Below, piece by piece: positions 5,835-51,379 of a DNA stretch of 64,000 nt. This DNA is from an uncultured Actinomycetes bacterium (GTDB lineage: Bacteria > Actinomycetota > Thermoleophilia > Gaiellales > JAICJC01). A program made the translations under genes and the position numbers. Under the pieces are notes generated by a model. The model saw only the letters and a program-made list of their open reading frames with translations, did not search any database and had not been told where the DNA came from. The stretch spans positions 25,531 through 89,530 of the forward strand of contig CAVWSF010000001.1 in assembly GCA_963757605.1 (NCBI GenBank), in the 5' to 3' direction. How positions within the stretch are numbered: position 1 is the first letter of the stretch; every line of letters begins with the position of its first letter.

Positions 5835-7040
5835 TCAGCCCGCCGCGGCGGCGGCCGCGCGCCCGGCTCGGCGGCCGTAGACCGCGCAGTCGAGCAGCGA
5901 GTTCCCCATCATCCGGTTTCGGCCATGGACACCGCCCGTGATCTCGCCGGCCGCGAAGATCCCGGGGACGGTCGTCTGGCCGTCGGCGTCGATGACGAGC
6001 CCGCCGTTCTGGTAGTGGAGCACGGGGTAGGTCAGGATCGGCTCGGCCAGCGGGTCGATGCCGGCAGCCCGGTAGCGGCGCAGCATGTACGGGATCACCT
6101 CGGCCGCGATGTCGGGGTCGATGCGAGTGGTGTCGAGCAGGACGGCCGGGCGGCCGTCGGGCGTCTCGAGCCCCCGGCCCTCGTCGCACTCGCGCACGAT
6201 CGCGGCGGCGACGGTGTCGCGCGGGGCCAGCTCGTCGACGAACCGCTCGCCGGCGCTGTTCAGCAGGAGCGCGCCGTAGGCGCGGGTGGTCTCGGGGATC
6301 GAGTAGCCCTGGAGCGGCGGCGGCCACACGCCGCCGTTGGGATGGTGCTGGAGGGCGTCGAAGTCGCGCACCTCGGCGCCGAGGGCACGGGCCAGCTCGG
6401 TCGCCTCGCCGGTCGCGCCGGGCTGGTTGGTGGTGAGGATGCCGGCCCGGCGGGCCTCGGCGTAGCAGCGCCCACCTGCCGCCAGGATGACGGCGCCCGC
6501 CTCGACGCGGACGCGCTCGCCGCCCTGCTCCAGCTCGACGTCGAAGTGGCCGTTCGTGCGCTCGAGCTCGGCGAGCGCCGTGTGGTCGTGGATGCGGCCG
6601 CCGTCGGCGTCGAGCGCTTTCCGCAGTGCCGTCGCGATCGCGTGCCCGGTGCGGTCACCCACCTGGAGCAGCCGCCGCCGCGATGCGCCGCCGCAGCGGG
6701 CGAGCCGGTAGCCCTCGCCCTCGCGCGAGAAGGCGACGCCGAGCTCCTCGAGCCAGGCGATCGCGCCCGGCGCCTCGTCGGCGAGGACGCCCGCCAGCGC
6801 CGGGTCGGCGGTGTCGTGCGAGGACGCGACGATGTCGGCCGCGTGCTGCTCGGGAGAGTCGTCGTCGCCCATGGCGGCCTGGATCCCGCCCTGGGCCTTG
6901 GCGGTGTTGCAGGACGCCTTGGAGCCCTTGGTGACGTGCAGGACGTCGGCCCCGGACCGGCGCGCCGACCAGGCCGCCGAGAGGCCCGCTCCGCCCGCTC
7001 CGACAACGAGCACATCCGTCGTCCTGCAAAGGTCTGGCAC
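5835..7040 (-). CDS. FAD-dependent oxidoreductase, fumarate reductase/succinate dehydrogenase/L-aspartate oxidase flavoprotein-like (short form)
   Basis: Has the DVLVVGAGGAGLSAA dinucleotide fold, TAKAQGGI, and the C-terminal PGIFAAGEITGGVHGRNRMMGNSLLDCAVYG. At 401 aa it has no capping C-terminal domain. GTG start. Confidence 0.75.
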   Translation of the reverse strand: MPDLCRTTDVLVVGAGGAGLSAAWSARRSGADVLHVTKGSKASCNTAKAQGGIQAAMGDDDSPEQHAADIVASSHDTADPALAGVLADEAPGAIAWLEELGVAFSREGEGYRLARCGGASRRRLLQVGDRTGHAIATALRKALDADGGRIHDHTALAELERTNGHFDVELEQGGERVRVEAGAVILAAGGRCYAEARRAGILTTNQPGATGEATELARALGAEVRDFDALQHHPNGGVWPPPLQGYSIPETTRAYGALLLNSAGERFVDELAPRDTVAAAIVRECDEGRGLETPDGRPAVLLDTTRIDPDIAAEVIPYMLRRYRAAGIDPLAEPILTYPVLHYQNGGLVIDADGQTTVPGIFAAGEITGGVHGRNRMMGNSLLDCAVYGRRAGRAAAAAAG

Positions 7041-19294: not shown

Positions 19295-21514
19295 ATGGCA
19301 ACGGTGCCTCGCAGTGCCGAAGCCGAGCGGCACGACCCACTGCTCGCCGAGCTGCTCGGCCGGATCGCCGAGTACAACGCGAACGCCGACGCCGACCTGA
19401 TCAGGGCGGCGTTCGACTACTCCTGCGTGCACCACAAGGGCCAGCGGCGCAAGAGCGGGGAGGAGTTCATCCACCATCCCGTGGCGGTCGCCACCATCTG
19501 CGCGGAGCTGAAGCTCGACACCGCGACGATCGCCGCCGCGCTCCTCCACGACGTGGTCGAGGACACCCAGGCCGAGCTCGACGAGGTGCGCGAGCGCTTC
19601 GGCGAGGACGTCGCCGTGCTCGTCGACGGCGTGACCAAGCTGACCCGGATCAGCTTCGCGAGCCGCGAGCAGGCCCAGGTCGAGAACTACCGCAAGATGA
19701 TCGTCGCGATGGCGCGCGACCTGCGTGTCATCCTGATCAAGCTCGCCGACCGGCTCCACAACATGCGCACGATCTCGGCGCTCGGAAAGCAGAAGCAGGT
19801 CGAGACCGCGAAGGAGACGCTCGAGCTCTACGCCCCGCTGGCCCACAGGCTCGGCATCCAGTCGATCAAGTGGGAGCTCGAGGACCTGGCCTTCCACACG
19901 CTCCACCCGCGTCGGTACGCCGAGATCGAGTCGCTCGTGAACCAGGCCGGCGACGAGCGCGAGCGGTTCGCCGACCAGGCCGGGACGATCCTGAACCACG
20001 AGCTCGAGCACGCCTCGATCGAGGCCGACATCTCCGGCCGTGCCAAGCACCTGTACTCGATCTACACCAAGATGGCGCAGGGCGGCAAGGAGTTCAACGA
20101 GATCTACGACCTGACCGCCGTGCGCGTGCTGGTCGACTCGGTCAAGGACTGCTACGGCGCGATCGGCGTCATCCACTCGTTGTGGAAGCCGATGCCGGGC
20201 CGGTTCAAGGACTACGTCGCGATGCCCAAGGTGAACATGTACCAGTCGCTGCATACGACGGTGATCGGGCCGCAGGGAAAGCCGCTCGAGATCCAGGTGC
20301 GAACGCAGGACATGCACCAGACGGCCGAGTACGGGATCGCCGCCCACTGGCTCTACAAGACGAGCCCGCACGGCTCCCGGGACCGGCCCGGCGCGAACGA
20401 GTGGGTCGCGCAGCTCGCCGACTGGCAGGGCGACGCGAACGATCCCAAGGAGTTCATGGACACGCTGCGCGTCGACCTCTTCTCGGACGAGGTGTACGTG
20501 TTCACGCCGAAGGGCGAGGTGAAGAGCCTGCCCGCCGGCGCGACGCCGCTCGACTTCGCCTACGCCGTCCACACCGACGTCGGCCACCGCTGCGTCGGCG
20601 CCAAGGTGAACGGGCGCATCGTGCCGCTGCACTACACGCTCCAGTCCGGCGAGTTCGTCGAGGTGCTGACCTCGAAGCAGGAGCGGGGCCCATCGCGCGA
20701 CTGGATGAACCTCGTGAAGACGTCGCGAGCGCGCAACAAGATCCGGCAGTGGTTCACGCAGCAGGCCCGCGAGGATCTCGAGCAGAAGGGCCGCGAGTCG
20801 CTCCAGCAGGCGCTCAAGTCGAACGGCCTGCCGCACCAGAAGGTGTCGGCGTCGCCGCTCCTGGCCGGGATCATCCGCGAGATGGGGTTCAAGAAGGCCG
20901 ACGACTTCTACGTCGCGATCGGCGGCGGCAAGATCCAGGTCGGCCAGGTCGTGACGAAGCTGATCGGCCGGTTGAAGACCGCCGAGGTGATCTCTCCCGA
21001 GCACGAGCTCACGCCCAGCCGGCGCCCGCAGAAGCGGCCCGCGGCGTCCTCGTCGTTCGGCATCGTGGTCGAGGGGACCACCGACCCCGATGTCCTCGTG
21101 CGCATGGCCAAGTGCTGCACGCCCGTGCCGGGCGACGGGGTGGTGGGCTACATCTCGCTCGGCCGCGGCATCACGATCCATCGCGACGACTGCCCGAACG
21201 TGCGCGCGCTCAAGCGGACGCCGGAGCGGTTCACCGCCGTGAGCTGGGACGACTCGGATGCCGCCACGAGCTCGTTCCGCGTCACGATCGCGCTGCAGTC
21301 CTGGGACCGCCCGCGCCTGCTCGAGGACGTCGCCCGGACATTCGCCGAGCACGGCGCCAACATCGTCGAGTACGGCGGCCACGTCGCCGACCAGATGGCG
21401 CGTAACTGGTACACGGCCGAGGTCGGCGACGTCAAGGAGTTGCGGGCTCTGCTGCAGGCCCTGCGCAACATCGACTCGGTCTTCGACGCCTACCGCGTCA
21501 CGCCCGGCGGGTAG
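19295..21514 (+). CDS. relA: Bifunctional (p)ppGpp synthetase/hydrolase RelA/SpoT homolog
   Basis: Has the HD hydrolase domain (HHPVAVA...LLHDVVEDT), the synthetase domain (YRSLHTTV-like QSLHTTVIGPQGKPLEIQVRT), then TGS and ACT regions. Confidence 0.95.
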   Translation: MATVPRSAEAERHDPLLAELLGRIAEYNANADADLIRAAFDYSCVHHKGQRRKSGEEFIHHPVAVATICAELKLDTATIAAALLHDVVEDTQAELDEVRERFGEDVAVLVDGVTKLTRISFASREQAQVENYRKMIVAMARDLRVILIKLADRLHNMRTISALGKQKQVETAKETLELYAPLAHRLGIQSIKWELEDLAFHTLHPRRYAEIESLVNQAGDERERFADQAGTILNHELEHASIEADISGRAKHLYSIYTKMAQGGKEFNEIYDLTAVRVLVDSVKDCYGAIGVIHSLWKPMPGRFKDYVAMPKVNMYQSLHTTVIGPQGKPLEIQVRTQDMHQTAEYGIAAHWLYKTSPHGSRDRPGANEWVAQLADWQGDANDPKEFMDTLRVDLFSDEVYVFTPKGEVKSLPAGATPLDFAYAVHTDVGHRCVGAKVNGRIVPLHYTLQSGEFVEVLTSKQERGPSRDWMNLVKTSRARNKIRQWFTQQAREDLEQKGRESLQQALKSNGLPHQKVSASPLLAGIIREMGFKKADDFYVAIGGGKIQVGQVVTKLIGRLKTAEVISPEHELTPSRRPQKRPAASSSFGIVVEGTTDPDVLVRMAKCCTPVPGDGVVGYISLGRGITIHRDDCPNVRALKRTPERFTAVSWDDSDAATSSFRVTIALQSWDRPRLLEDVARTFAEHGANIVEYGGHVADQMARNWYTAEVGDVKELRALLQALRNIDSVFDAYRVTPGG

Positions 21515-21544
21515 ATGATCGATTCCTCATGCTCGTGATGCCCA

Positions 21545-21602
21545 GCTTCAAGCCGCCTGCGGCTTGAAGCGGTCGTGAGCGACCTGCTACCCAGCAGGTC
21601 GC
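21545..21602 (+). terminator. Two consecutive perfect hairpins downstream of relA
   Basis: GCTTCAAGCCGC-CT-GCGGCTTGAAGC spans 21545-21570. GCGACCTGCT-ACCC-AGCAGGTCGC spans 21579-21602. There is no U-tract, so this would be a GC-rich I-shaped terminator. Confidence 0.45.
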
Positions 21603-21606
21603 GAAC

Positions 21607-21773
21607 GGGCGAGAACCGAGCGTTGCAAGGACGCAGGGAGCGTCGATATTGCCAATATCGGCGCGACCGAGGACGCCGCGAGGCGAGAGTTCGCAGCCGC
21701 AGCCCCGCCACCGCCGCCACACAGGCCACGGTCGGACGTCCAGGCGCACGAGAATGGGAAATCGATCATCTAG
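21607..21773 (+). promoter_or_regulatory. Conserved leader element, copy A (candidate structured cis-regulatory RNA)
   Basis: Homologous to the reverse complement of 23596-23766. Identical blocks are GCGAGAACC, GCAAGGACGCAGGGAG, CGACCGAGGACGCCGCGA, GTTCGCAGCCGCAGC, CGTCCAGGCGC and CATCTAG. The hairpin is at 21640-21664. The element ends 11 nt before ATG 21785. Confidence 0.55.
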
Positions 21774-21784
21774 GATCCCCGGCC

Positions 21785-22291
21785 ATGAGCGCCGAGGGCG
21801 AGATCACGATCTGGCAGGGGAATCCCAGCTGGAAGTCGATGCTCCTGTTCTACGTCAAGTGGACGCTGGTGTCGCTCCTGGCGCTCGGGGTTTGGGCAGC
21901 GCTGACCGCGGGTGGCCAGGACGTGGGCCCGACGTGGTTCACGGTCGCCACCGGCATCGGCCTCGTGCTCACGTACATCGTCGGGTGGATCCGGCGTCGA
22001 AGCACGCGGTACCTCGTCACCGACCGTCGCATCCACATCCGCACTGGGCTGATGTCCCGCCACGAGCGAACGACGCACGTCGATCGCGTCCAGAACGTGA
22101 ACTTGCGCCAGAGCATCCCTCAGCGACTGCTCGGCATCGGCGACGTCGACTGGGACACGGCGGGCACGGACGCGGCCGACGCCGACTTCACGTTCCGCGG
22201 AGTCGACGACCCGAGCTCGCTGGTGCACGCGGCCGACCGCTACTACGGCGTGGCGGCGGTTCACGAGACGGCGCAGCGCGAGCCCCAGTAA
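21785..22291 (+). CDS. Membrane-anchored bacterial PH-domain protein (bPH_2/YdbS-like)
   Basis: Two TM segments are followed by RYLVTDRRIHIRTGLMSRHERTTHVDRVQNVNLRQSIPQRLLGIGDV. Confidence 0.7.
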   Translation: MSAEGEITIWQGNPSWKSMLLFYVKWTLVSLLALGVWAALTAGGQDVGPTWFTVATGIGLVLTYIVGWIRRRSTRYLVTDRRIHIRTGLMSRHERTTHVDRVQNVNLRQSIPQRLLGIGDVDWDTAGTDAADADFTFRGVDDPSSLVHAADRYYGVAAVHETAQREPQ

Positions 22292-22292
22292 G

Positions 22293-22649
22293 GTGCGGGC
22301 GGTGGACGCCGCCGCCAGCATCCGCTCCTTCGCCCTCTCGTTCCCACAGTCTCGCGAGGACCACCCCTTCGGCCCCGACGCCCACGTCTTCAAGGTCGGC
22401 GGCGGCAGCACGATGTTTGCGATCCTGGGGGACGGGCCGCCCGTCACGGTCACGCTCAAGCTGACCCGCGAGGAGCGCGAGGTGGCGCTCGAGCTGCCGT
22501 TCGTGTCGGAGGCCCGCTACGTCGGCCGCTACGGCTGGATCACCGCGCGGGTCGAGGACGAGGACTGCCTCGAGGCGACGCTCGAGTGGATGCGCGAGAG
22601 CTACTGGCTGAAGGCGCCCGACGACGTGCGCGAAGCGGCCTGGGCTTAG
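22293..22649 (+). CDS. MmcQ/YjbR family protein
   Basis: FALSFPQSREDHPFGPDAHVFKVGG..MFAIL...YVGRYGWITARV fits this family. GTG start 2 nt after the upstream stop. Confidence 0.7.
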   Translation: MRAVDAAASIRSFALSFPQSREDHPFGPDAHVFKVGGGSTMFAILGDGPPVTVTLKLTREEREVALELPFVSEARYVGRYGWITARVEDEDCLEATLEWMRESYWLKAPDDVREAAWA

Positions 22650-23596
22650 CCCTCCACCCGCATCGCCCGCTCGATGCCGTCCGGGCCGACGTCGACCAGG
22701 TAGCCGCGCAGGATGCCGTGGTTGGCCTCGCTGCCGGGGTTGATGCAGAGCGTGCGGCCGATCTTGCGCTCGCCGCCGGACTCGTGGATGTGGCCGTGCA
22801 CGCCGAGCAGCGGCTCGAACCGCTCGATGATCCGCCGGACGGCGTACGAGCCCACCGGCCCGCGCAGGACGTCGCCCGCCGAGATCGTCGGGCGCAGGTT
22901 CTCGTCGAGGATCGGCGCCGTATCGAGGCCCGAGTCGTGCGGCGGCACGTGGATCATGAAGACCGCCCGCCGGGGGTCGCGCACCCGCCCGGCCAGCGCC
23001 TCGAGGCGTGATTCGAGCGCGTCCTCGGGCTCCTCGCGCGGCGTCGCCCACGGCGTGATGTTCGACCATCCTGAGGCGAGCAGCTGCAGCTCGCCCGGCA
23101 TGTCGAGGACGCGCCCGTCGGCGTTCTGCACGAACGCGCCCTCGCGGTTCAGGATCGGGTCGATCCCGAAGTCGTCGTCGTTCCCCGGGATCAGGTAGAG
23201 CGGCACATCCCCGCCGCCGAGGCGCTCGTCGGCGAGGTCCATCCACCGCCCGACCCGCTCGTTCATGAGCTCGTGGAGCAGGCGGTCGCGGGCATCGGCG
23301 TCGGTCGCAAGGCGGTCGGCCTCCTCGGCCGTCGAGACGAACGAGTAGAAGCCGACGTCGGCGATGTCGCGCTCGAGCGTCGCCAGCTCCTCGTCGCTTC
23401 CGGCCCGCCGTCGCACGCCGAAGAGCTCGGCCTCGTAGGCCGCGCCGTTTCGCACGATCGGGACGATCGCCTTGCCCGTCAGATCGCCGGCGACGAGCGC
23501 GACGTCGGCCTTGTAGACGTTGAGGCGGATCGCGTTCAGGAACTTCCGCCACGCCGTCTCGGCCGCGTGGAAGTCGCTTGCGAGGTAGATCCGCAC
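22646..23596 (-). CDS. Metallophosphoesterase (calcineurin-like)
   Basis: Has RIYLASDFH, VALVAGDLTG, LIPGNDD, MIHVPP and GHIHESGG. GTG start at 23596, directly after CATCTA. Confidence 0.8.
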   Translation of the reverse strand: MRIYLASDFHAAETAWRKFLNAIRLNVYKADVALVAGDLTGKAIVPIVRNGAAYEAELFGVRRRAGSDEELATLERDIADVGFYSFVSTAEEADRLATDADARDRLLHELMNERVGRWMDLADERLGGGDVPLYLIPGNDDDFGIDPILNREGAFVQNADGRVLDMPGELQLLASGWSNITPWATPREEPEDALESRLEALAGRVRDPRRAVFMIHVPPHDSGLDTAPILDENLRPTISAGDVLRGPVGSYAVRRIIERFEPLLGVHGHIHESGGERKIGRTLCINPGSEANHGILRGYLVDVGPDGIERAMRVEG

Positions 23597-23766
23597 TAGA
23601 TGGGTAACCCCCGGTTCCCGCGCGCCTGGACGCCCGGATGGATCGACTGGTCGATGACTGGTGGCGCTGCGGCTGCGAACCGGCCCATCGCGGCGTCCTC
23701 GGTCGGGCCGATATCACCCGATATTGGCCCTCCCTGCGTCCTTGCGCTACTTGGTTCTCGCCGCCC
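23597..23766 (-). promoter_or_regulatory. Conserved leader element, copy B (candidate structured cis-regulatory RNA)
   Basis: The minus-strand sequence aligns with copy A block for block. The hairpin at 23705-23730 has a different sequence but the same pairing. The element ends CATCTAG, overlapping the GTG start of the metallophosphoesterase. Confidence 0.55.
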
Positions 23767-23802
23767 ATGACGGCACGGGCACCGGGAGTCACCCATCACC
23801 GA

Positions 23803-25536
23803 CTAGTCCGGCGGGATCTCGGCGAACAGCATGTCGCGATCGACCCCGGCCGACCGCGACCGCCACTGCATCACGACGTAGATGACGACGCCCAGGGCGT
23901 AGAAGATGAGCGCATCGAGGATGCCGTTCGTCTCGAGGTAGGTGAGCTTCGAGACCCCCTCCGCCGTGATGCTGTCCCAGATCGGCTTGATGATCCCGAA
24001 CGCGTACACCCAGACCGGGAACACGAGCCACGCGAGCCCAACCCACGGGAGCGCCTTCGCGAACGGCGCGTTTCGCACCAGATCCGGCCGGCGGACGCGA
24101 ACGAGGATGGCATTCACCCCCGGCATCGTCCACGTGAGGATCGCCATCGTGATCGAGAACCACGCCGTCCCGGCCAGGTTGAGCTTGTTGCCGGTGGTGG
24201 CGAGGAAGTGCGGCAGCGCGTTGTAGCTCTGGAAGAACAGGAAGAGCGCGGTCAGCCCGAGCGTCGCCAGGATCGCGTTCAGCGGCGCGCGCAGCCGCTC
24301 GTTCACCTCGCCGAACCACTCGGGGAGCTGACGGTCGAGGCTCCAGGCGAGCTGCATGCGGCTGATGAAGTTGATGTAGACCGGGCATAGGAGGAGCGGG
24401 AAGATGGCGCCCGCGAAGCTGATGAGGGCCCAGATCGGCCACAGGCTGCCGTTTGCGATCACCCCCAGGAGCGGCATCGCGTTGGGCTGGCCCATCGGCA
24501 GCGCCGAGAGGTTCTCGTTGAACCCCCAGTACGCGGCCCCCCAGCTCACGTTCATGTCGAAGCCGAAGTGGTTCGAGATCAGGTCCACGTAGACCGAGTT
24601 CGCGATCACGCCCACCAGGAGCGCACCGAGCAGCGCGATCAGGACGCCGCGGCGCACGTTCCCGCGCACCTCGCCCGCGATGTAGGCCGAGTACTGGAAC
24701 CCGATGTACTGGAAGAGCAGGATCGACAGCATGATCGGGAAGACCGTGTGCGAGAAGAGGTCGCCCAGGATGTCGGTCGAGTGCCCGGGCAGGAACGTCG
24801 GATGCCCCGAGGCCGCGATCTTGGCCGCCGAGAGCCCGCCGGTGTACTGCGGCAGGTTGTGCTCGAAGTCCGAGCGGTTCGTCGCCAGGAGGCCGAAGAT
24901 GAACATCGCCACGAACGACGCCACGCCGAAGATCGCAAGCGCCGTCACGACCTTGTGGAACGTGCGCGTGGGGAGGAGGACGATGGCCGCGATGACCGCC
25001 AGCACGACGAGCGAGGCGATGAACCCGGGAGTGCCGGTGATCGACCCGGTCGAGTCGGTGAACCAGGTGTTGGCGTCCTGGAAGAAGCTCCCGCCGGCGC
25101 CGATGCCGATGATGCGCGCCGTGATCTGAAGGTTGCGCAGGACGAGCGGCACCTCGAACGCGATGATGAGCACCGACGCGATGACGAGCGTCCACGCCTC
25201 GAGCCAGCCCAAAAACGGGTGCGTGATGCGGCTCGTGAACACGTAGTCGCCGCCGGAGCGCGGCATCACGGAGGTGAGCGACGCGAAGATGATCGCGAGC
25301 AGGACGCAGAAGAGGCCGGTGACGATCGCCGCCCAGCCGTACTCCGAGAACGGGCCCCACTTCCACACCGGGATGAATCCGAGCGAGTAGAAGATCGGAT
25401 AGAGCGTGAGCCCCACCCCGACGAACGCCGCGATGTTGAAGAACAGCGCGTTCGTGACGCTGACGTCACGCACGAGCCCGGACGACTGGCGGACGAAGAG
25501 CCGCGATCCGGTGCTCGAATCGGCCATATCGGTCAT
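23803..25536 (-). CDS. APC-superfamily amino acid/polyamine permease
   Basis: A 577-aa polytopic protein with SVMPRSGGDYVFTSR and 12 or more TM segments. The RBS GAGGGAGGG lies upstream. Confidence 0.8.
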   Translation of the reverse strand: MTDMADSSTGSRLFVRQSSGLVRDVSVTNALFFNIAAFVGVGLTLYPIFYSLGFIPVWKWGPFSEYGWAAIVTGLFCVLLAIIFASLTSVMPRSGGDYVFTSRITHPFLGWLEAWTLVIASVLIIAFEVPLVLRNLQITARIIGIGAGGSFFQDANTWFTDSTGSITGTPGFIASLVVLAVIAAIVLLPTRTFHKVVTALAIFGVASFVAMFIFGLLATNRSDFEHNLPQYTGGLSAAKIAASGHPTFLPGHSTDILGDLFSHTVFPIMLSILLFQYIGFQYSAYIAGEVRGNVRRGVLIALLGALLVGVIANSVYVDLISNHFGFDMNVSWGAAYWGFNENLSALPMGQPNAMPLLGVIANGSLWPIWALISFAGAIFPLLLCPVYINFISRMQLAWSLDRQLPEWFGEVNERLRAPLNAILATLGLTALFLFFQSYNALPHFLATTGNKLNLAGTAWFSITMAILTWTMPGVNAILVRVRRPDLVRNAPFAKALPWVGLAWLVFPVWVYAFGIIKPIWDSITAEGVSKLTYLETNGILDALIFYALGVVIYVVMQWRSRSAGVDRDMLFAEIPPD

Positions 25537-39587: not shown

Positions 39588-39660
39588 TGCGCCTGGTAGG
39601 AATCGAACCTACGGCCTTGCGCTCCGGAGGCGCACGCTCTATCCCCTGAGCTACAGGCGC
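39588..39660 (-). tRNA. tRNA-Arg (anticodon CCG)
   Basis: The minus strand reads GCGCCTGTAGCTCAGGGGATAGAGCGTGCGCCTCCGGAGCGCAAGGCCGTAGGTTCGATTCCTACCAGGCGCA. It folds as a cloverleaf with anticodon loop CUCCGGA and a GTTCGATTC T-arm. No CCA is encoded. Confidence 0.9.
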
Positions 39661-40738: not shown

Positions 40739-41778
40739 AGCGCTACGTGATCCTCGCGGAGGGGGCGTTCGACGAGGAGGCCAAGACCGCCACCGGCGTC
40801 ATGCGCTACGCCGAGTCCCCGACCGTTGCGGTCATCGACTCGACCAGGGCGGGCACGGTCGCCGGCGACCACGTCCCGGGCCTCGCGAGTGACGTCCCGG
40901 TCGTGGGGGCGCTCGCCGACGCCATCCCGTTCGAGCCGACCACGCTGCTCGTCGGCGTCGCGCCGGCGGGCGGCAAGCTGCCAGACTCGTACCGGCGCGC
41001 GATCCTCGACGCGCTCCACAACGGCCTCGACGTGGAGAGCGGCCTGCACGACTTCGTGGGCGACGATCCCGAGTTCGACGCGGCCGCCCGGCTCGCCGGC
41101 CGCGAGATCCACGACCTGCGCCGGGCCCCGCACGGCCTGAACGTGCCCACCGGCGCGAACCTTGCGGTCCCGACCCACACCGTGCTCACCGTCGGCTCGG
41201 ACTGCGCGCTCGGCAAGATGACCGTCTGCCTGGAGCTCGACGCCGAGGCCAGGCGGCGCGGGCTTGCGTCGGTGTTCGTCCCGACCGGCCAGACCGGGAT
41301 CGCCATCGCCGGGTGGGGGATCGCGGTCGACGAGGTCATCTCCGACTTCGTGGCCGGGGCGGCCGAGCGGCTCGTGGTGGAGGGCCATGAGCGCGGCGGC
41401 GACGGCGCCATCCTGTGGATCGAGGGGCAGGGCTCGCTCAACCACCCGTTCTACTCAGGCGTCACGCTGGGCCTCCTGCACGGCTCGGCGCCGCACGCGC
41501 TGGTCTTCGTCCACGAGCCGGGCCGCGGGACCATCGACGGCGACGCGCGCTACCCGATCCCGGGGATCGGGGAGCTGATCGACGACCAGGTGCGGATGGC
41601 CCGCCACGTGCGCCGGGCGCCCGTCGTCGCGGTCTCGCTCAAGACGAACCGGCTGGACGAGGACGCGGCTCGGGCGGCGGTCGCCGAGGTGGAGCGGGAG
41701 ACCGCCCTGGTCGCCGACGACCCGGTGCGCTTCGGCGCCGGGCGCCTGCTGGACGCCGTGCTGAGCGCCCGCGGGTAA
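40729..41778 (+). CDS. DUF1611-domain protein (DgcN-like, P-loop/acetyltransferase-type)
   Basis: Has AEGAFDEEAKTATGVMRY, TVGSDCALGKMT and WIEGQGSLNHPFYSGVTLGLLHGS. GTG 40729 overlaps the epimerase stop. Confidence 0.7.
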   Translation: MALKRYVILAEGAFDEEAKTATGVMRYAESPTVAVIDSTRAGTVAGDHVPGLASDVPVVGALADAIPFEPTTLLVGVAPAGGKLPDSYRRAILDALHNGLDVESGLHDFVGDDPEFDAAARLAGREIHDLRRAPHGLNVPTGANLAVPTHTVLTVGSDCALGKMTVCLELDAEARRRGLASVFVPTGQTGIAIAGWGIAVDEVISDFVAGAAERLVVEGHERGGDGAILWIEGQGSLNHPFYSGVTLGLLHGSAPHALVFVHEPGRGTIDGDARYPIPGIGELIDDQVRMARHVRRAPVVAVSLKTNRLDEDAARAAVAEVERETALVADDPVRFGAGRLLDAVLSARG

Positions 41779-41789
41779 CATCCCGCGCC

Positions 41790-42890
41790 GTGCCCGATCC
41801 GCGAGTCACGAGGCTGGCCGAGGTGCTGTGCCGCTACTCGCTCGAGATCGGCCCGGGCGACACGGTGCTGATCGACGGGCCGGCCCTGGCGCAGCCGCTC
41901 TTCGTCGAGGTCGTGAAGGCGGTCACCGACGCCGGTGCCCATCCGATGCTGCGGCCGCGGCTCGACCGGGCCGACGCGGCGCTGCTCGAGGGAGCAGACG
42001 ACGCGCAGATCGCGGCGATCACGAAGCTCGACGAGGTCGAGGTCGAGGCGCCCACGCGCGCGCTCACGATCTGGGCCAACACCAACACCCGCTACATGAG
42101 CGGCGTCCCGTCCGAGACGCAGGCTGCGCGGGCTGCGGCGATGCGGCCGCTGTTCGAGCGGTTCCTGGCGCGGGAGGCGGCCGGCGACGCGCGCTGGTGC
42201 GGCACGGCGTTCCCCTGCCACGCGGCCGCCCAGGACGCGGGCATGTCGCTCTCGGAGTGGGAGGACTTCGTCTACCGCGCCGGCCATCTGGACGACCCCG
42301 ACCCGATCGCCTTCTGGCGCGAGCAGTCCAAGCGCCAGGCGGCCATCGCCGAGCGGTTCACGGGGGTCCGCGAGATCCGCATCCTGGCCGAGGACACCGA
42401 CCTCGTGCTCGACGTCGCCGACCGGATCTGGGACAACGCCGACGGCCACAAGAACTTCCCCGACGGCGAGGTCTACACCAGCCCCGTCGAGAGCTCCACC
42501 CGCGGCCACATCGCGTTCAGCTTCGACGCGACCTACATGGGAAACGACGTCGCCGGCGTACGGCTCAAGTTCGACGGGGGCCGGGTCGTGGAGCACGAGG
42601 CCACCCGCGGCGCCGACTTCCTGGGGCGGATGCTCGACATGGACGCGGGCGCACGCTACCTGGGCGAGCTGGCGTTCGGCATGAACGACGAGATCCAGGT
42701 GCCGACCCGCGACACGCTCTTCGACGAGAAGATCGGCGGCACGTGCCACGTCGCGCTCGGGATGGCGTTCCCGGAGTGCGGCGGCACGAACACGTCGGGC
42801 CTGCACTGGGACCTGGTGTGCGACCTGCGCCGCGGCGGCGAGATCCACGCCGACGGCGAGGTCATCGCGCGCGATGGGAGGTTCGTGTGA
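41790..42890 (+). CDS. M29-family aminopeptidase (AmpS/PepS type), copy 1
   Basis: Has GHKNFPDGEVYTSP, LGELAFGMN, FDEKIGGTCHVALG and GLHWDLV. Confidence 0.8.
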   Translation: MPDPRVTRLAEVLCRYSLEIGPGDTVLIDGPALAQPLFVEVVKAVTDAGAHPMLRPRLDRADAALLEGADDAQIAAITKLDEVEVEAPTRALTIWANTNTRYMSGVPSETQAARAAAMRPLFERFLAREAAGDARWCGTAFPCHAAAQDAGMSLSEWEDFVYRAGHLDDPDPIAFWREQSKRQAAIAERFTGVREIRILAEDTDLVLDVADRIWDNADGHKNFPDGEVYTSPVESSTRGHIAFSFDATYMGNDVAGVRLKFDGGRVVEHEATRGADFLGRMLDMDAGARYLGELAFGMNDEIQVPTRDTLFDEKIGGTCHVALGMAFPECGGTNTSGLHWDLVCDLRRGGEIHADGEVIARDGRFV

Positions 42891-44026
42891 CCGATCCCCG
42901 TATCGAGCGGCTGGCCGACGTGGTCGTGAACTACTCGCTGCCGCTGGCCGAGGGCGACACCGTGCTCATCCAGGGGCCGGCCCTCGCGGAGGAGCTGATC
43001 GTCGAGCTCGTCCGGGCCGCGACCCGCGCGGGGGCGATCGCCCGGGTGCGGGCCACGGTCCAGGGGACGGACGAGGCCTACCTGTCCCGGGCGAGCGAGG
43101 AGCAGCTCGACCACCTGCCGCCGTGGTCGCTCGAGGAGATGAGCGCGATCGACGCCCGCATCTCGGTCGTCGGGGCGTGGAACACGCGCGAGCTGACCGG
43201 CATCGATCCGGCCAAGATGGCACGCCGGTCTCGCGCGGCCCAGCCGCTCATGGCCCAGTTCATGGAGCGCTCGGCGGCCGGCGAGCTGAAGTGGTGCGTC
43301 ACGGCGGCGCCGTGTGAGGCCTTCGCCCAGGATGCCGGGATGTCGCTCGACGCCTACGCCGACTTCGTCTACCGCGCCGGCTGGCTCGACACCAGCGACC
43401 CGGTCGCAGCGTGGAAGACCTACGCGACCCGGCTCTCGAAGCTCGCCGAGAAGCTCGCGTCCGTGAAGACGGTGCGCGTGCTCGCCGACGGCACCGACAT
43501 CACCGTCGGCGTCGAGGGCCGCACCTGGATGGCGTCGAAGGGCACGCACAACTTCCCCGACGGCGAGGTCTTCACCGGGCCGGTCGAGACTCAGACCAAC
43601 GGCGAGGTGCGGTTCAGCTTCCCTGCGATCATGGGCGGGCGCGAGGTGGAGGACGTGCGCCTGCGGTTCGAGGGCGGCCGTGTCGTCGCGAGCGAGGCCC
43701 GAAGCGGCGAGGACTACCTGCGCCAGATGATCGGCATGGACGACGGCGCATCGATCCTGGGCGAGTTCGCGATCGGCACGAACTACGCCGTGGAGGAGTT
43801 CACGCGCCAGATCCTCTTCGACGAGAAGATCGGCGGGACGTGCCACATGGCGCTCGGCGCCGGCTACCCCGACACCGGCTCGACCAACGTCTCGGGCCTG
43901 CACTGGGACATCGTCTGCGACCTGCGCTCCGGCGGTGCCGAGATCCACGCCGACGGCGAGCCGATCTTCCGCGACGGCCAGTTCCTGCCCGAGTTCTTCG
44001 CCGAGGACCTCTCGGTCCCGGCCTGA
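42887..44026 (+). CDS. M29-family aminopeptidase, copy 2 (tandem paralog)
   Basis: Has GTHNFPDGEVFTGP, LGEFAIGTN, FDEKIGGTCHMALG and GLHWDIV. GTGA overlap with copy 1. Confidence 0.8.
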   Translation: MTDPRIERLADVVVNYSLPLAEGDTVLIQGPALAEELIVELVRAATRAGAIARVRATVQGTDEAYLSRASEEQLDHLPPWSLEEMSAIDARISVVGAWNTRELTGIDPAKMARRSRAAQPLMAQFMERSAAGELKWCVTAAPCEAFAQDAGMSLDAYADFVYRAGWLDTSDPVAAWKTYATRLSKLAEKLASVKTVRVLADGTDITVGVEGRTWMASKGTHNFPDGEVFTGPVETQTNGEVRFSFPAIMGGREVEDVRLRFEGGRVVASEARSGEDYLRQMIGMDDGASILGEFAIGTNYAVEEFTRQILFDEKIGGTCHMALGAGYPDTGSTNVSGLHWDIVCDLRSGGAEIHADGEPIFRDGQFLPEFFAEDLSVPA

Positions 44027-47781: not shown

Positions 47782-48360
47782 ATGGTCACGAAGCCCGACA
47801 TCAGAACCACGTTCCTCGACGCCGCCGAGCGGCTGCTCATCGAGGAGGGCAGGCGAGGCATCTCGACCCGGCGGCTGGCGCGCGAGGCCGGCCTGAACCA
47901 CGGGCTCGTGCACTACTACTTCGGCAGCGTCGAGAACCTCATGCTGGCGGTGTTCGAGCGCTTCACCGACCGGCTCGTGGAGCGCCAGCGGGCGATGTAC
48001 GCGGCCGACGTCCCGTTCCTCGAGAAGTGGCGCGCCGCGATGGGGTTCATGGAGGAGGATCTCGCCGCCGGCTACGCCAAGGTCTGGGCCGAGCTCCAGG
48101 CCGCGGCGATGAACGACGAGGAGCTCCAGCGCCGCTTCAGCGCGGTGTACGTGAAGTGGCGCTCCGTCCTCACGGACGCGTTCACGGCGGCGGCGCGGGA
48201 GTACGGCGCGAGCGACGCGGCGGTGCCGGCGCTGGTCACGCTCGTCATGACCTTCACGGTCGGCATGTTCAACGAGCGCCTCGTCGGCATCGACGCGGGC
48301 CACGCCGAGCTCCTGGCGTGGTTCGAGGCCGCCGTCCGGTCGATGGAGGCCGCCGCGTGA
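47782..48360 (+). CDS. TetR/AcrR family transcriptional regulator
   Basis: The N-terminal HTH is ISTRRLAREAGLNHGLVHYYFGS. Confidence 0.9.
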   Translation: MVTKPDIRTTFLDAAERLLIEEGRRGISTRRLAREAGLNHGLVHYYFGSVENLMLAVFERFTDRLVERQRAMYAADVPFLEKWRAAMGFMEEDLAAGYAKVWAELQAAAMNDEELQRRFSAVYVKWRSVLTDAFTAAAREYGASDAAVPALVTLVMTFTVGMFNERLVGIDAGHAELLAWFEAAVRSMEAAA

Positions 48361-49253
48361 CCGTCGCCGAGCAGACCCGCGCCCGCTACCCCGACTCGGA
48401 GGGCGACGTGGACCGCGACGGCGTTCGTGTCCACTGGGAGCAGTACGGAGACGGCGCGCCGGCGATCCTCTTCCTGCCGACCTGGTCGATCGCGCCGGCC
48501 CGGTTCTGGAAGGCGCAGATCCCGTACTTCGCTCGCCGCCACCGCGTACTGGCCTTCGATCCGCGCGGGAACGGCCGTTCCGACCGGCCGATCGCAGGCG
48601 ACGCCTACGCCGAGGCGGCGTTCGCCGCCGACGCCGCCGCCGTCCTCGACGCGACAGGGACCGACCGCGCCGTCGTCGTCGGGCTCTCGCTCGGGGCGCA
48701 GCGCGGGCTGCTTCTGGCGACGGAGCGCCCGGACCGCGTGCTCGGGCTCGTGCTGCTCGGGCCTGCGGTCCCGCTTGCGCCGATGCCGCCCAAGCGGGCC
48801 GAGGCCTTCGCGCTCTTCGACCAGGAGCGCAGCGACGAGCGGCCGTGGCACCAGCACAACGCGCACTTCTGGAGGCGTGACTTCCGAGGGTTCCTCGAGT
48901 TCTTCTTCTCGCAGGCGTTCACCGAGCCGCACTCGACCAAGCAGACCGAGGACTGCGTCGGCTGGGGACTCGATTGCGGGGTGGATGCTCTGCTGGCCTC
49001 GGAGGACGGCCCGGGCCTCGGCGACGCGACCGCTGCGACCGCCGCGGCCGTCACCTGCCCGGTGCTCGTGATCCACGGTACGGACGACGCGATCGTCCCC
49101 CACGCGGCCGGAGCCGAGCTGGCCCGCCTGACCGGCGGGTCGCTCGTCACCGTCGCGGGCGGCGGCCACTGCCCGCAGGCCCGCGACCCGGTGCTCGTGA
49201 ACCTCCTCCTCCGCGACTTCGTCGACTCGCTCGACGGGCAGGACGCGGCATGA
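48357..49253 (+). CDS. Alpha/beta hydrolase (Ser nucleophile GLSLG)
   Basis: Has AILFLPTW, FDPRGNGRSD, VVGLSLGAQ, VIHGTDD and GGGHCPQARDP. Confidence 0.8.
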   Translation: MTVAEQTRARYPDSEGDVDRDGVRVHWEQYGDGAPAILFLPTWSIAPARFWKAQIPYFARRHRVLAFDPRGNGRSDRPIAGDAYAEAAFAADAAAVLDATGTDRAVVVGLSLGAQRGLLLATERPDRVLGLVLLGPAVPLAPMPPKRAEAFALFDQERSDERPWHQHNAHFWRRDFRGFLEFFFSQAFTEPHSTKQTEDCVGWGLDCGVDALLASEDGPGLGDATAATAAAVTCPVLVIHGTDDAIVPHAAGAELARLTGGSLVTVAGGGHCPQARDPVLVNLLLRDFVDSLDGQDAA

Positions 49254-51379
49254 GGGGCGCCGAGCAGACCCGAGCCCGCTACCCGGACGCCGACGGCGTC
49301 GTCGAGCGCGACGGTGTGCGGGTCTACTGGGAGCGGTACGGCTCCGGCTCGCCCGCCTATCTGCTCCTCCCGACGTGGGAGGCCCTGCACTCGCGGACGT
49401 GGAAGTGCCAGATCCCGTACCTGGCCCGGTACGGGACCGTGATCACGTTCGACCCGCGCGGGAACGGGCGCTCGGACCGGCCGCGGGATCCCGCCCTCTA
49501 CGCGCGGCGCGAGTACGCGGACGACGCCGTCGCGGTGCTCGACGCCGCCGGGGTGGCTCGCGCGCTCGTGGTGGCCTGGTGCGACCTCGGCGAGTCGCTG
49601 ATCCTCGCGGCGGAGCATCCCGAGCGCGTGACCGGCCTCTTCGAGATCGCCCCGGCCGTCCAGCTCGTCGACATGCCGCCGGAGCTGGTCGCCCACCCCT
49701 TCGACGAGCCTCTCGACACGGACGAGGGCTGGGCCAAGGAGAACCGCCACTACTGGCTGCGCGACTGGCGCGGGTACACGGAGTTCTTCTTCGGCGAGTG
49801 CTTCAGCGAGCCGCATTCGACGAAGCAGCTGGAGGACGCGGTCGGCTGGTCGCTCGAGACCGACCCCGAGACCATGCTCCTGCGCTTCCGCGGCTGGAAC
49901 GACAAGGTGATCGGGCGGGCGGAGGCGACGGCACACGCGGGCCGGATCGCGTGCCCGGGCGTCGTGATCCACGGAACCGAGGACCGGCTCGTGGAGGCCG
50001 GCCGCGGCCGGACGGTGGCCGAGACGCTGGGCTGGGGCCACGTGAGCATCGAGGGCTCCGGCCACGGCCCGCACGCCCGCGATCCCGTGCGCACGAACCT
50101 GCTCCTGCGCACGGCGGGGCGTGAAGCGACTGCCGGCCCCCGGCCGGCCGCCGACCGGCGCTGGACGCGGGCCGTCAAGCGCGCGAAGCGCGCGCTCTAC
50201 ATCTCCTCGCCGATCGGCCTGGGGCACGCCTGGCGCGACGTCGCGATCGCAGACGAGCTGCGCGCGCTGCACCCGGACATCCAGATCGACTGGCTCGCCC
50301 AGGATCCCGTGACGCGCGTCCTCGAGTCGCGCGGCGAGCGCATCCACCCGGCCTCGGCCGACCTGGCGAGCGAGTCGGCCCACATCGCCTCCGAGTCGGC
50401 CGGCCACGACCTGCACGTCTTCCAGGCGATCCGGCGGATGGACGAGATCCTGATCGCGAACTTCATGGTCTTCCACGACCTCGTGGAGCAGGAGGCCTAC
50501 GACGTGTGGATCGCGGACGAGGGCTGGGAGATCGACTACTTCCTGCACGAGAACCCGGAGCTCAAGACGGCGGCGTACTGCTGGCTCACCGACTTCGTCG
50601 GCTGGCTGCCGATGCCCGACGGCGGCGAGCACGAGGCCTACCTGACGGCCGACCTGAACGCCGAGATGATCGAGCACATCGCCCGCTTTCCGCGGATCCG
50701 AGACCGGGCGATCTTCGTCGGGAGCCCGCAGGACATCGTGGCCGACACGTTCGGGCCGGGGCTGCCTGCGATCAGGGCGTGGACCGAGGAGCACTACGAC
50801 TTCTCGGGCTACGTGATCGGGCCGCTGCCCGGCCCCGGGGAGCGGGAGGCGCTGCAGGCCGAGCTCGGCTGCGGGCCGGACGAGCGGGTCTGCATCGCCA
50901 CGGTGGGCGGCTCGGGCGTCGGGGACGCGCTCCTGCGCCGGGTCGTCGACGGCTTCGACGTGGCCCGCCGGGCGATCCCCGACCTGCGGATGATCGCCGT
51001 CGCCGGTCCGCGCATCGACCCGGCCACGTTCCCGCAGCGCGACGGCCTGGAGGTGCGCCCCTACGTCCACGAGCTTCGCCGCCACCTCGCCGTCTGCGAC
51101 CTCGCCGTCGTCCAGGGCGGCCTGGCGACGACGATGGAGCTGACGGCTGCGCGGCGGCCGTTCCTCTACTTCCCGCTCGGCCACCACTTCGAGCAGCGCA
51201 TCCACGTGCGCCACCGGCTCGACCGATACGGCGCCGGCCGCTGCATGGACTTCGACACGGCAACCCCCGACGCGATCGGTGCAGCCATCGCCGAGGAGAT
51301 CGGAAGGGAGGTGGCCTATCGCGACGTCGAGACCGACGGCGCCGCCCGCGCGGCGGCGCTGATTGCAGAGGTGCTGTGA
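49250..51379 (+). CDS. Alpha/beta-hydrolase paralog fused to a GT-B (MurG/GT28-like) glycosyltransferase domain
   Basis: The N-terminal ~290 aa are colinear with the upstream hydrolase, but the elbow reads VVAWCDLGES. The continuous frame then gives ALYISSPIGLGHAWRDVAIADELR...GGSGVG...VVQGGLATTMELTAARRPFLYFPL. ATGA overlap at the start. Confidence 0.65.
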   Translation: MRGAEQTRARYPDADGVVERDGVRVYWERYGSGSPAYLLLPTWEALHSRTWKCQIPYLARYGTVITFDPRGNGRSDRPRDPALYARREYADDAVAVLDAAGVARALVVAWCDLGESLILAAEHPERVTGLFEIAPAVQLVDMPPELVAHPFDEPLDTDEGWAKENRHYWLRDWRGYTEFFFGECFSEPHSTKQLEDAVGWSLETDPETMLLRFRGWNDKVIGRAEATAHAGRIACPGVVIHGTEDRLVEAGRGRTVAETLGWGHVSIEGSGHGPHARDPVRTNLLLRTAGREATAGPRPAADRRWTRAVKRAKRALYISSPIGLGHAWRDVAIADELRALHPDIQIDWLAQDPVTRVLESRGERIHPASADLASESAHIASESAGHDLHVFQAIRRMDEILIANFMVFHDLVEQEAYDVWIADEGWEIDYFLHENPELKTAAYCWLTDFVGWLPMPDGGEHEAYLTADLNAEMIEHIARFPRIRDRAIFVGSPQDIVADTFGPGLPAIRAWTEEHYDFSGYVIGPLPGPGEREALQAELGCGPDERVCIATVGGSGVGDALLRRVVDGFDVARRAIPDLRMIAVAGPRIDPATFPQRDGLEVRPYVHELRRHLAVCDLAVVQGGLATTMELTAARRPFLYFPLGHHFEQRIHVRHRLDRYGAGRCMDFDTATPDAIGAAIAEEIGREVAYRDVETDGAARAAALIAEVL

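Follow-up and report, generated by a model that had tools for sequence, protein, structure and literature searches.

Elements of the IS630/Tc1-mariner kind duplicate a TA dinucleotide and prefer CTAG, and those of the insertion sequence (IS) groups IS5 and IS427 duplicate 2-4 bp at YTAR. When co-transcribed with their neighbours, Correia and ERIC elements undergo processing by RNases, and MIRU carry an open frame that begins just past the upstream stop codon and runs to a stop overlapping the downstream start. In REP sequences and the TIR repeats of TIRYT genes, the termini supply TAG stop codons to flanking open reading frames (ORFs) (Di Nocera et al. 2013, PMC3733652). Here we consider two related segments, copy A and copy B, in a 64,000-nt stretch of an uncultured Gaiellales genome (hereafter the window: positions 25,531 to 89,530 of contig CAVWSF010000001.1, assembly GCA_963757605.1), where each adjoins the start codon of an unrelated gene. 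An earlier note on this DNA read them as a candidate cis-regulatory RNA leader. Very probably both were instead inserted independently and represent a mobile repeat that is non-autonomous, non-coding and hairpin-forming ('foldback'), akin to MITEs (miniature inverted-repeat transposable elements) and REP sequences, from a large family confined, as sampled, to the class Thermoleophilia. The segments are dispersed, polymorphic insertions with inverted ends at a TA, and they form a conserved, covarying rod.

Close relatives lack both segments. Orthologous loci were retrieved through homologues of the metallophosphoesterase (MPE) gene that follows copy B, which also place the host in Gaiellales, and gene order is kept with both segments absent in loci L128, L126, L005/L006, L002 and L003/L004, whose MPE genes are respectively 94.6%, 92.1%, 88.0%, 82.6% and 79.3% identical to that of the window at the nucleotide level. 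In these relatives the spacer between relA and the PH-domain gene is 11 nt long and that between the permease and MPE genes 4-9 nt, and a covariance model of the family finds no match in any of the empty-allele loci (L128, L126, L002-L006). Absence of the element at 94.6% nucleotide identity means that the family marks recent mobility, and because the gene order between the copies is the same as in relatives, no inversion took place. Two short public contigs (L001 and L210), presumably from the window's own lineage, have copies A and B where the window has them. Two operons received the insertions, copy A in the relA-PH spacer of 11 nt and copy B in the permease-MPE spacer of 4-9 nt, and insertion into such tiny stop/start spacers leaves each copy ending in CATCTAG beside a start codon. 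This shared ending, correctly recorded in the earlier note, lies before the ATG at 21785 in copy A and overlaps the GTG at 23596 in copy B; it is the terminal inverted repeat joined to the insertion-site TA. The genes concerned are these:

19295..21514, + strand: relA/spoT homologue (Pfam HD_4, RelA_SpoT, TGS, ACT); its stop codon provides the insertion-site TA of copy A
21785..22291, + strand: bPH_2 (bacterial PH domain) gene, 3' of copy A; its start in relatives is 11 nt past the relA stop
22293-22649, + strand: YjbR gene
22646..23596, - strand: MPE gene, 3' of copy B; its start in relatives is 4-9 nt past the permease stop
23803..25536, - strand: amino-acid permease gene (Pfam), 5' of copy B

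Aligned with one another, 21607-21790 (+ strand) and 23590-23766 (- strand) have a mean column identity of 81%, with every identical block of the earlier note in place, and within the window the conserved block sequences occur at the two copies only. A covariance model built from unrelated family members matches both copies and finds no other convincing match in the window, whose longest real inverted repeats (I1, 56 nt at 86%; I8, 42 nt at 81%) are formed by this same pair. The variable hairpin described from the first reading is likewise seen: it is strong in each copy, differs in sequence between A and B, and keeps its pairing. The aligned part as first drawn is thus real, but the left arms had been missed, and the full elements are longer:

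21514..21770, + strand: copy A, full element, 257 nt; TA flanks at 21512-21513 (within the relA stop TAG, 21512-21514) and 21771-21772
21514..21524, + strand: left terminal inverted repeat of copy A, GATGATCGATT, perfect reverse complement of 21760-21770 (11 nt)
21760..21770, + strand: right terminal inverted repeat of copy A, AATCGATCATC, followed by TA-G; the PH gene thereby keeps its native TAGGA ribosome-binding context
21545..21602, + strand: two additional left-arm hairpins, at 21545-21570 (common to L025) and at 21579-21602, specific to the sub-type of copy A
21606..21699, + strand: conserved central module of copy A (covariance-model match 52.4 bits, E = 2e-9)
21627-21640, 21641-21663 and 21664-21677, + strand: parts of the copy A module from the family alignment, namely 5' loop AAGGACGCAGGGAG, apical hairpin and 3' loop CGACCGAGGACGCC
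23599..23797, - strand: copy B, full element, 199 nt; TA at 23597-23598 adjoins the MPE start codon, and the left junction is degenerate (GT, not TA, at 23798-23799)
23599..23614, - strand: right-end inverted repeat of copy B, CCGGGGGTTACCCATC (- strand), pairing with 23782-23797 with 2 mismatches in 16 nt (14/16)
23782..23797, - strand: left-end inverted repeat of copy B, GATGGGTGACTCCCGG (- strand), partner of 23599-23614
23663..23774, - strand: conserved central module of copy B (covariance-model match 51.7 bits, E = 2.8e-9)
23745-23730, 23729-23706 and 23705-23688, - strand: parts of the copy B module, namely 5' loop, apical hairpin and 3' loop
23596..23799, - strand: 67-codon open frame across copy B, from a GTG 4 nt past the permease stop to a TAG overlapping the MPE GTG (TAGTG)

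The boundaries can be read most closely at site A, where the empty alleles of L005 and L126 are GGGTAGGATCC (in longer form CCCGGCGGGTAGGATCCCCG) and the filled allele of the window is GGGTAG[ATGATCG...GATCATCTAG]GATCC, which has 259 nt added to the empty sequence at a TA. Read further out, the filled junctions are ...GGGTAG ATGATCGATT...AATCGATCATCTAG GATCCCC..., and the right-hand TAG-GATCC retains the native upstream context of the PH gene. The arrangement would fit either duplication of the TA or, equally, placement of AGATG...CATCT between the T and the A of the relA stop codon. Copy B has CATC-TA-GTG at its right junction, the GTG being the MPE start, and GT in place of TA on its left. 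Across 93 full copies of the window's subfamily the consensus termini are (T)AGATGRTTGAT...ATCAAYCATCT(A). A TA target is supported by L152, where the conserved C-terminus of uvrA (...ALAG and stop) shows a native TAG in the target, its far-side copy having since mutated; true duplication and insertion between T and A would leave equivalent sequences. Some copies, L155 and L199 for example, have flanks other than T...A.

The two copies belong to a populous family. Contigs from one genome per species were searched with an exact two-block pattern (AAGGACGCAGGGAG, 15-40 nt, GACCGAGGACGCC), and the ~75-nt core is carried by at least 119 loci in Thermoleophilia genomes and metagenome-assembled genomes (MAGs); among the matches listed, all are from Solirubrobacterales, Gaiellales, Thermoleophilaceae, Miltoncostaeaceae or unclassified Actinomycetota MAGs. 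Soil metagenomes contribute at least 120 loci of the window's own subfamily, and their distinct flanks number at least 113, so that the further homologues called for at the outset are plentiful. Model R1, a covariance model from 35 short-type copies, recovers ~15 more diverged copies in 745 kb around known ones, their cores showing single-base differences. Copies are solitary, at a density of 1-3 per 8 kb, and among the carriers are complete Thermoleophilia chromosomes such as OY969915.1, OY969117.1 and OY970203.1. An origin in phages or plasmids was rejected, with 0 matches among viral contigs and none among plasmids. Literature searches with the core sequences gave no relevant context among 8 million papers, and no paper on Thermoleophilia repeats was found.

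Family units are 95-260 nt long and end in CTAG, CTGA or CTAA, located in the stem itself. Long types (160-260 nt) fall into subfamilies whose identical arms recur in unrelated flanks and across genomes, and the arms therefore travel with the element; their ends are CTAG + ~10 nt + CGGnAA, or TAGGAGGGCTTGGCGGAAC, among others, and ends of the GGAGGGCTTGGCGGAAC type are seen in the family. The window copies' subfamily, with the consensus (CTA)GATGATTGATTCCAC...GTGATGTCCTGGGCGGCGAGAACC...core...GGTTCGCAGCCGCAGC...~35 variable nt...CGTCCAGGCGCGCGGGA...GTGGAATCAATCATC(TAG), includes L025 (A-like) and L093 (B-like), and indels among these four full-length members are not multiples of three, in agreement with the claim that the similarity is non-coding. 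Each window copy has nearer relatives elsewhere (~83-85% identity over 200 nt), and as relatives of one another the two rank 82nd and 84th of 89. Judged from these comparisons the copies are independent insertions and not each other's nearest relatives, and the local duplication named by the earlier note as a possible refutation is not the case.

Short types (~100-110 nt) have arms unique to each site, apart from a few related pairs, and are insertional too: L026 is filled between gcvPB and ligD, L131 has 12 nt at that place, and L130 an unrelated spacer. The idea that the core alone had entered pre-existing terminator hairpins was rejected, since the gcvPB/ligD empty alleles hold an unrelated 8-bp hairpin or a different spacer and native sequence makes up no more of the arms than their outermost ~7 bp. 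At L026 1837-1958 the convergent gcvPB and ligD genes both end in GCTCTGA, in the outermost stem, and the empty L130 (2230-2325) and L131 (2345-2375) have GCTCTAG and GCTGTAG; relative to these alleles the stem of L026 has apparently been extended into coding sequence through synonymous and stop-codon changes, which suggests that its arms may have been 'perfected' into the flanking genes via templated correction or selection. At the same junction L130 2236-2320 carries a different ~85-nt palindromic spacer (GCTGTCGTC...GACGACAGC) with no R1 match. Other members are of interest in their own right. L074 6420-6541 is a short-type member directly on a relA stop (...AYRITPS and stop), the same junction as copy A with a different element type, and the relA junction may be a recurrent landing site. 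Members at orthologous positions right after the same gene's stop in different species (L020 199-320 and L028 2272-2393; L103 499-620 and L122 3042-3163) have the same cores and wholly different arms, through repeated hot-spot insertion or fast concerted arm evolution. L088 7778-7919 and L018 6280-6427 have an enlarged, branched apical domain, the L018 and L033 (6785-6907) copies adjoin tRNA genes, and L094 has tandem partial core repeats beside a full copy at ~5900-6100.

Family members fold into rods of 95-190 nt or more, with free energies as low as -130 kcal/mol. Going inwards, the outer arm of a rod is followed by a P2 helix (often (Y)TGACC...GGTCA), then by a P3 helix and next by an internal loop, with an apical hairpin at the centre. 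The ~75-nt central module common to all members is a helix interrupted by two loops around the covarying apical hairpin, and the strands of the internal loop (5' AAGGACGCAGGGAG, 3' CGACCGAGGACGCC) are nearly invariant and purine-rich, each with AGGACGC. The arms pair almost perfectly yet differ between subfamilies. The compensatory changes suspected from two copies are amply borne out when a hand-drawn structure is applied to 35 gap-free short-type copies: 85.3% of cells are paired, against 27-44% with the register slid, there are 227 compensatory (double-change) cells against 91 in shuffles, double changes occur in 17 of the 18 arm pairs, and the P3 helix contains GC, AU and CG pairs in comparable numbers. 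The GCGUCC block, for which alternative pairings with GGACGC had been proposed, does pair, but by inspection it sits opposite CCTGGGCG within the arm and not necessarily opposite the GGACGC of the core. No known RNA family accounts for the structure, and that candidate was set aside: the Rfam search suggested earlier gave, at gathering thresholds, only a tRNA elsewhere in the window and, at E<=10, nothing credible on either copy, so that the label of unclassified RNA holds; across 15 family member loci, tRNAs alone pass gathering. The sole gathering-level match in the window is the tRNA gene at 39588-39660 (- strand). The extra left-arm hairpins of copy A have a weak cmscan match to atpB RNA (21545-21629, + strand; 17.5 bits against a gathering threshold of 37.4, E = 0.63), which we judge to be chance.

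With the coding strand assigned from GC3 phase (G+C at third codon positions), contexts across the whole family (105 members) are convergent in 30 cases, antisense tandem in 24, sense tandem in 10 and divergent in 1, and in the window's subfamily the corresponding figures are 23, 13, 12 and 6. The outermost stem pairs contain stop codons of flanking genes. Ten genes downstream in the sense direction belong to ten unrelated Pfam families (EamA transporter, EF-G-like GTPase, GNAT acetyltransferase, M20 peptidase, acyl-CoA dehydrogenase, isocitrate/isopropylmalate dehydrogenase, exonuclease III-like protein, adenylosuccinate synthetase, aldo-keto reductase and ECF sigma factor) and are not a regulon. 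These contexts speak against the original proposal of a gene-specific, riboswitch-like leader for the PH-domain and MPE genes, which we now regard as highly improbable. In its favour are the sense orientation of both window copies immediately 5' of a start codon and a conserved structure with no Rfam match; but the same junctions are empty in relatives at 79-95% nucleotide identity, the commonest context is between convergent 3' ends, with members in either orientation and sense and antisense tandem placements equal in the subfamily (12 vs 13), the downstream genes are functionally unrelated, and the segments have terminal inverted repeats and lie at a TA. Still more remote is the possibility that the sequence was recently duplicated locally in inverted orientation or is a small gene for a protein or leader peptide, for which one can point to 38 ungapped codons at the 3' side of both copies with the same TAG end and to the 67-codon ORF of copy B. 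Yet that ORF has a chance of ~0.27 (our estimate) of being open at this GC content and is not conserved in L025 or L093, the 38-codon frame is broken there by indels of -2 (L025) and +1 (L093), and copy A has no start codon in it, for which reasons a small ORF was rejected; the open frame of copy B may reflect preserved translational coupling, or chance. Duplication, including a composite transposon, was dismissed too, as the copies are among each other's most distant relatives within the subfamily, their left arms differ in length, and gene order is unchanged relative to relatives.

As both copies have the sense orientation within operons, transcription probably carries them along with their neighbours in the form of long RNA rods. 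These might be processed by the flanking cistrons, or stabilise or insulate them, and an RNA-level effect of the copies on PH and MPE expression may follow. Mobilisation would occur in trans, by a TA- or CTAG-targeting transposase of the IS630/Tc1-mariner or IS5/IS427 kind. Several observations weigh against this account. Neither an autonomous element or transposase with matching ends nor a TA-flanked pair of long inverted repeats was found in the 1.5 Mb of examined loci, and the ORFs between close paired copies (L088, L090, L050, L094, L030) include nothing transposase-like, their translations having been judged by eye without a domain-library scan. The closest relatives sampled for the window copies reach only ~85% identity, so that no recent source copy is seen. 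The TA 'duplication' is ambiguous, the left junction of copy B is degenerate, and within the subfamily every copy keeps the inner A...T of AGATG...CATCT but only ~55-75% have the outer T...A; by inspection, short-type members have no visible target duplication at all. Finally, a near-invariant interior with free arms is the reverse of ordinary MITEs, in which the ends are conserved and the interior is not, and with the interior as the conserved part, something beyond simple parasitism must act.

Two further explanations take that interior as their starting point. One, possible though doubtful, holds that the host profits from the core as an RNA module (for processing or stability of the RNase III type, for factor binding or in place of a terminator, for example) that rides on, or has been captured by, several foldback lineages, so that the window copies would be intercistronic RNA elements. 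A core nearly invariant across orders with free arms, strong covariation of the helices that flank the loops, clustering at 3' ends with avoidance of divergent promoter regions (1/105), and outermost stem pairs that take in the stops of both neighbouring genes are all in its favour, as is the processing of Correia and ERIC transcripts; but close relatives do without elements at these junctions, the window copies as whole segments fold no better than shuffled sequence (z = -0.2 and -0.6), and no U-tract or T-run signature of an intrinsic terminator is present, with no terminator-like sites in 21300-24100. Nor was a sigma-70-like site found that might act as an outward promoter. Moreover, 47 of 55 short-type copies are antisense to the gene they abut, which conflicts with the strand that seems selected to fold. 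That strand, the one carrying AAGGACGC, was identified by disallowing G:U pairing in folding, so that G:U and A:C both count as 1x1 mismatches: on it, G:T-type outnumber A:C-type mismatches by 21:2 in the apical hairpin, 57:14 in the arms, 12:4 at the internal sites of the aligned short-type copies and 59:23 at the subfamily's termini, counts that are not phylogenetically independent and make the strand bias only moderate evidence. The bias speaks for the other explanation, in our estimation somewhat less probable again, that these are REP/REPIN-like elements moved as folded single-stranded DNA by an HUH enzyme (Y1, RAYT/TIRYT or IS200/IS605-type), which would read the core hairpin and loops rather than the ends and for which the TA would be a cleavage or target site and no duplication. 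A single-strand system of this sort would fit the strand bias and the conserved interior better than a DDE transposase; it would also suit ends that vary between subfamilies and a short type without target duplication, and the termini donate TAG stop codons to flanking ORFs as those of REP do (PMC3733652). Against it, the elements measure 100-260 nt and not 20-40 nt, they have no GTAG or CGTC tag at the hairpin foot, no Y1 transposase gene was seen by eye in translations between or beside paired copies, the mismatch counts share ancestry as noted, and element orientation has no link to GC skew or to the direction of distal genes, a result on which replication-linked orientation was rejected as well.

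The foldback insertion remains our preferred explanation of the two segments, and the invariant core within it implies, we infer, a specific protein or nucleic-acid partner. More tentatively, and with the odds on the whole against it, the ~75-nt module may be a functional folded nucleic-acid domain with a dedicated partner: either the recognition structure of a new single-strand-specific mobilisation system, or a module for RNA processing or binding that several unrelated foldback lineages captured and carried across Thermoleophilia, with arms kept perfectly paired, even into flanking stop codons, by arm-to-arm templated correction. Standard MITE biology does not explain the invariant interior, the free ends and the wobble-type bias of one strand, which point to a partner worth seeking. 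For annotation, two apparent 'leaders' of a Gaiellales genome become insertions, and one covariance model can label hundreds of similar intergenic hairpins in Thermoleophilia MAGs that could otherwise be mistaken for riboswitch candidates. Thermoleophilia are abundant soil bacteria with almost no genetics, and the location of the family exactly on operon stop/start junctions, relA included, means that it may alter operon expression. Other repeats were encountered along the way. In the window, 40752-43935 holds three tandem paralogous units (period ~1097-1133 nt) and 48347-49857 two (period ~885-893 nt), at 66-73% identity and probably duplicated genes; in L074, a 768-nt segment (1604-2371) lies between two TA dinucleotides, has inverted ends of 16 nt that match perfectly (TCGCCGGGAGTTCCCG), and may likewise be a small mobile element.

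Set against described systems, the family shares features with several and coincides with none. It resembles riboswitches and cis-regulatory leaders in its conserved loops between covarying helices and, in the window, in its 5'-proximal position; unlike them it has no conserved position, leaves orthologous loci empty, adjoins unrelated neighbours and possesses the ends of a mobile element. Integron attC sites have conserved R/L boxes at the base of the stem, a variable apex and arrays with one site per cassette, whereas here the apex is conserved, the base variable and the copies solitary. MIRU and ERIC/IRU are likewise intercistronic repeats inside operons, actinobacterial or enterobacterial, and the frame of copy B recalls that of MIRU, but copy A has no frame, the frame is not conserved in the subfamily, and single foldback units stand here in place of the tandem 40-100-bp units of MIRU/ERIC. 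With REP/REPIN sequences and the TIR repeats of TIRYT genes the family has in common that it is palindromic and extragenic, gathers at the 3' ends of genes, supplies TAG stops from its termini and apparently folds strand-specifically; it differs in being much longer, in having no GTAG or CGTC tag beside a short stem, in conserving an internal loop pair and not the stem, and in having no associated RAYT or TIRYT gene in the sequence examined. The bacterial MITEs derived from IS630/Tc1-mariner elements, Correia/NEMIS of Neisseria and RUP of Streptococcus pneumoniae, differ in that the family here comes without a matching autonomous IS, has termini that vary between subfamilies around a nearly invariant ~75-nt core, and includes short-type members lacking TA duplication. 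The likeness to them is that, at 100-260 nt, non-coding and bounded by terminal inverted repeats (11/11 in copy A, 14/16 in copy B) flanked by TA (on the right side only in copy B), the elements are small, dispersed between genes and within operons, polymorphic in presence and absence between close strains, and capable of forming a long hairpin if transcribed. The repeat family is new and apparently undescribed, MITE/REP-like in kind, and unusual in conserving its interior rather than its ends.

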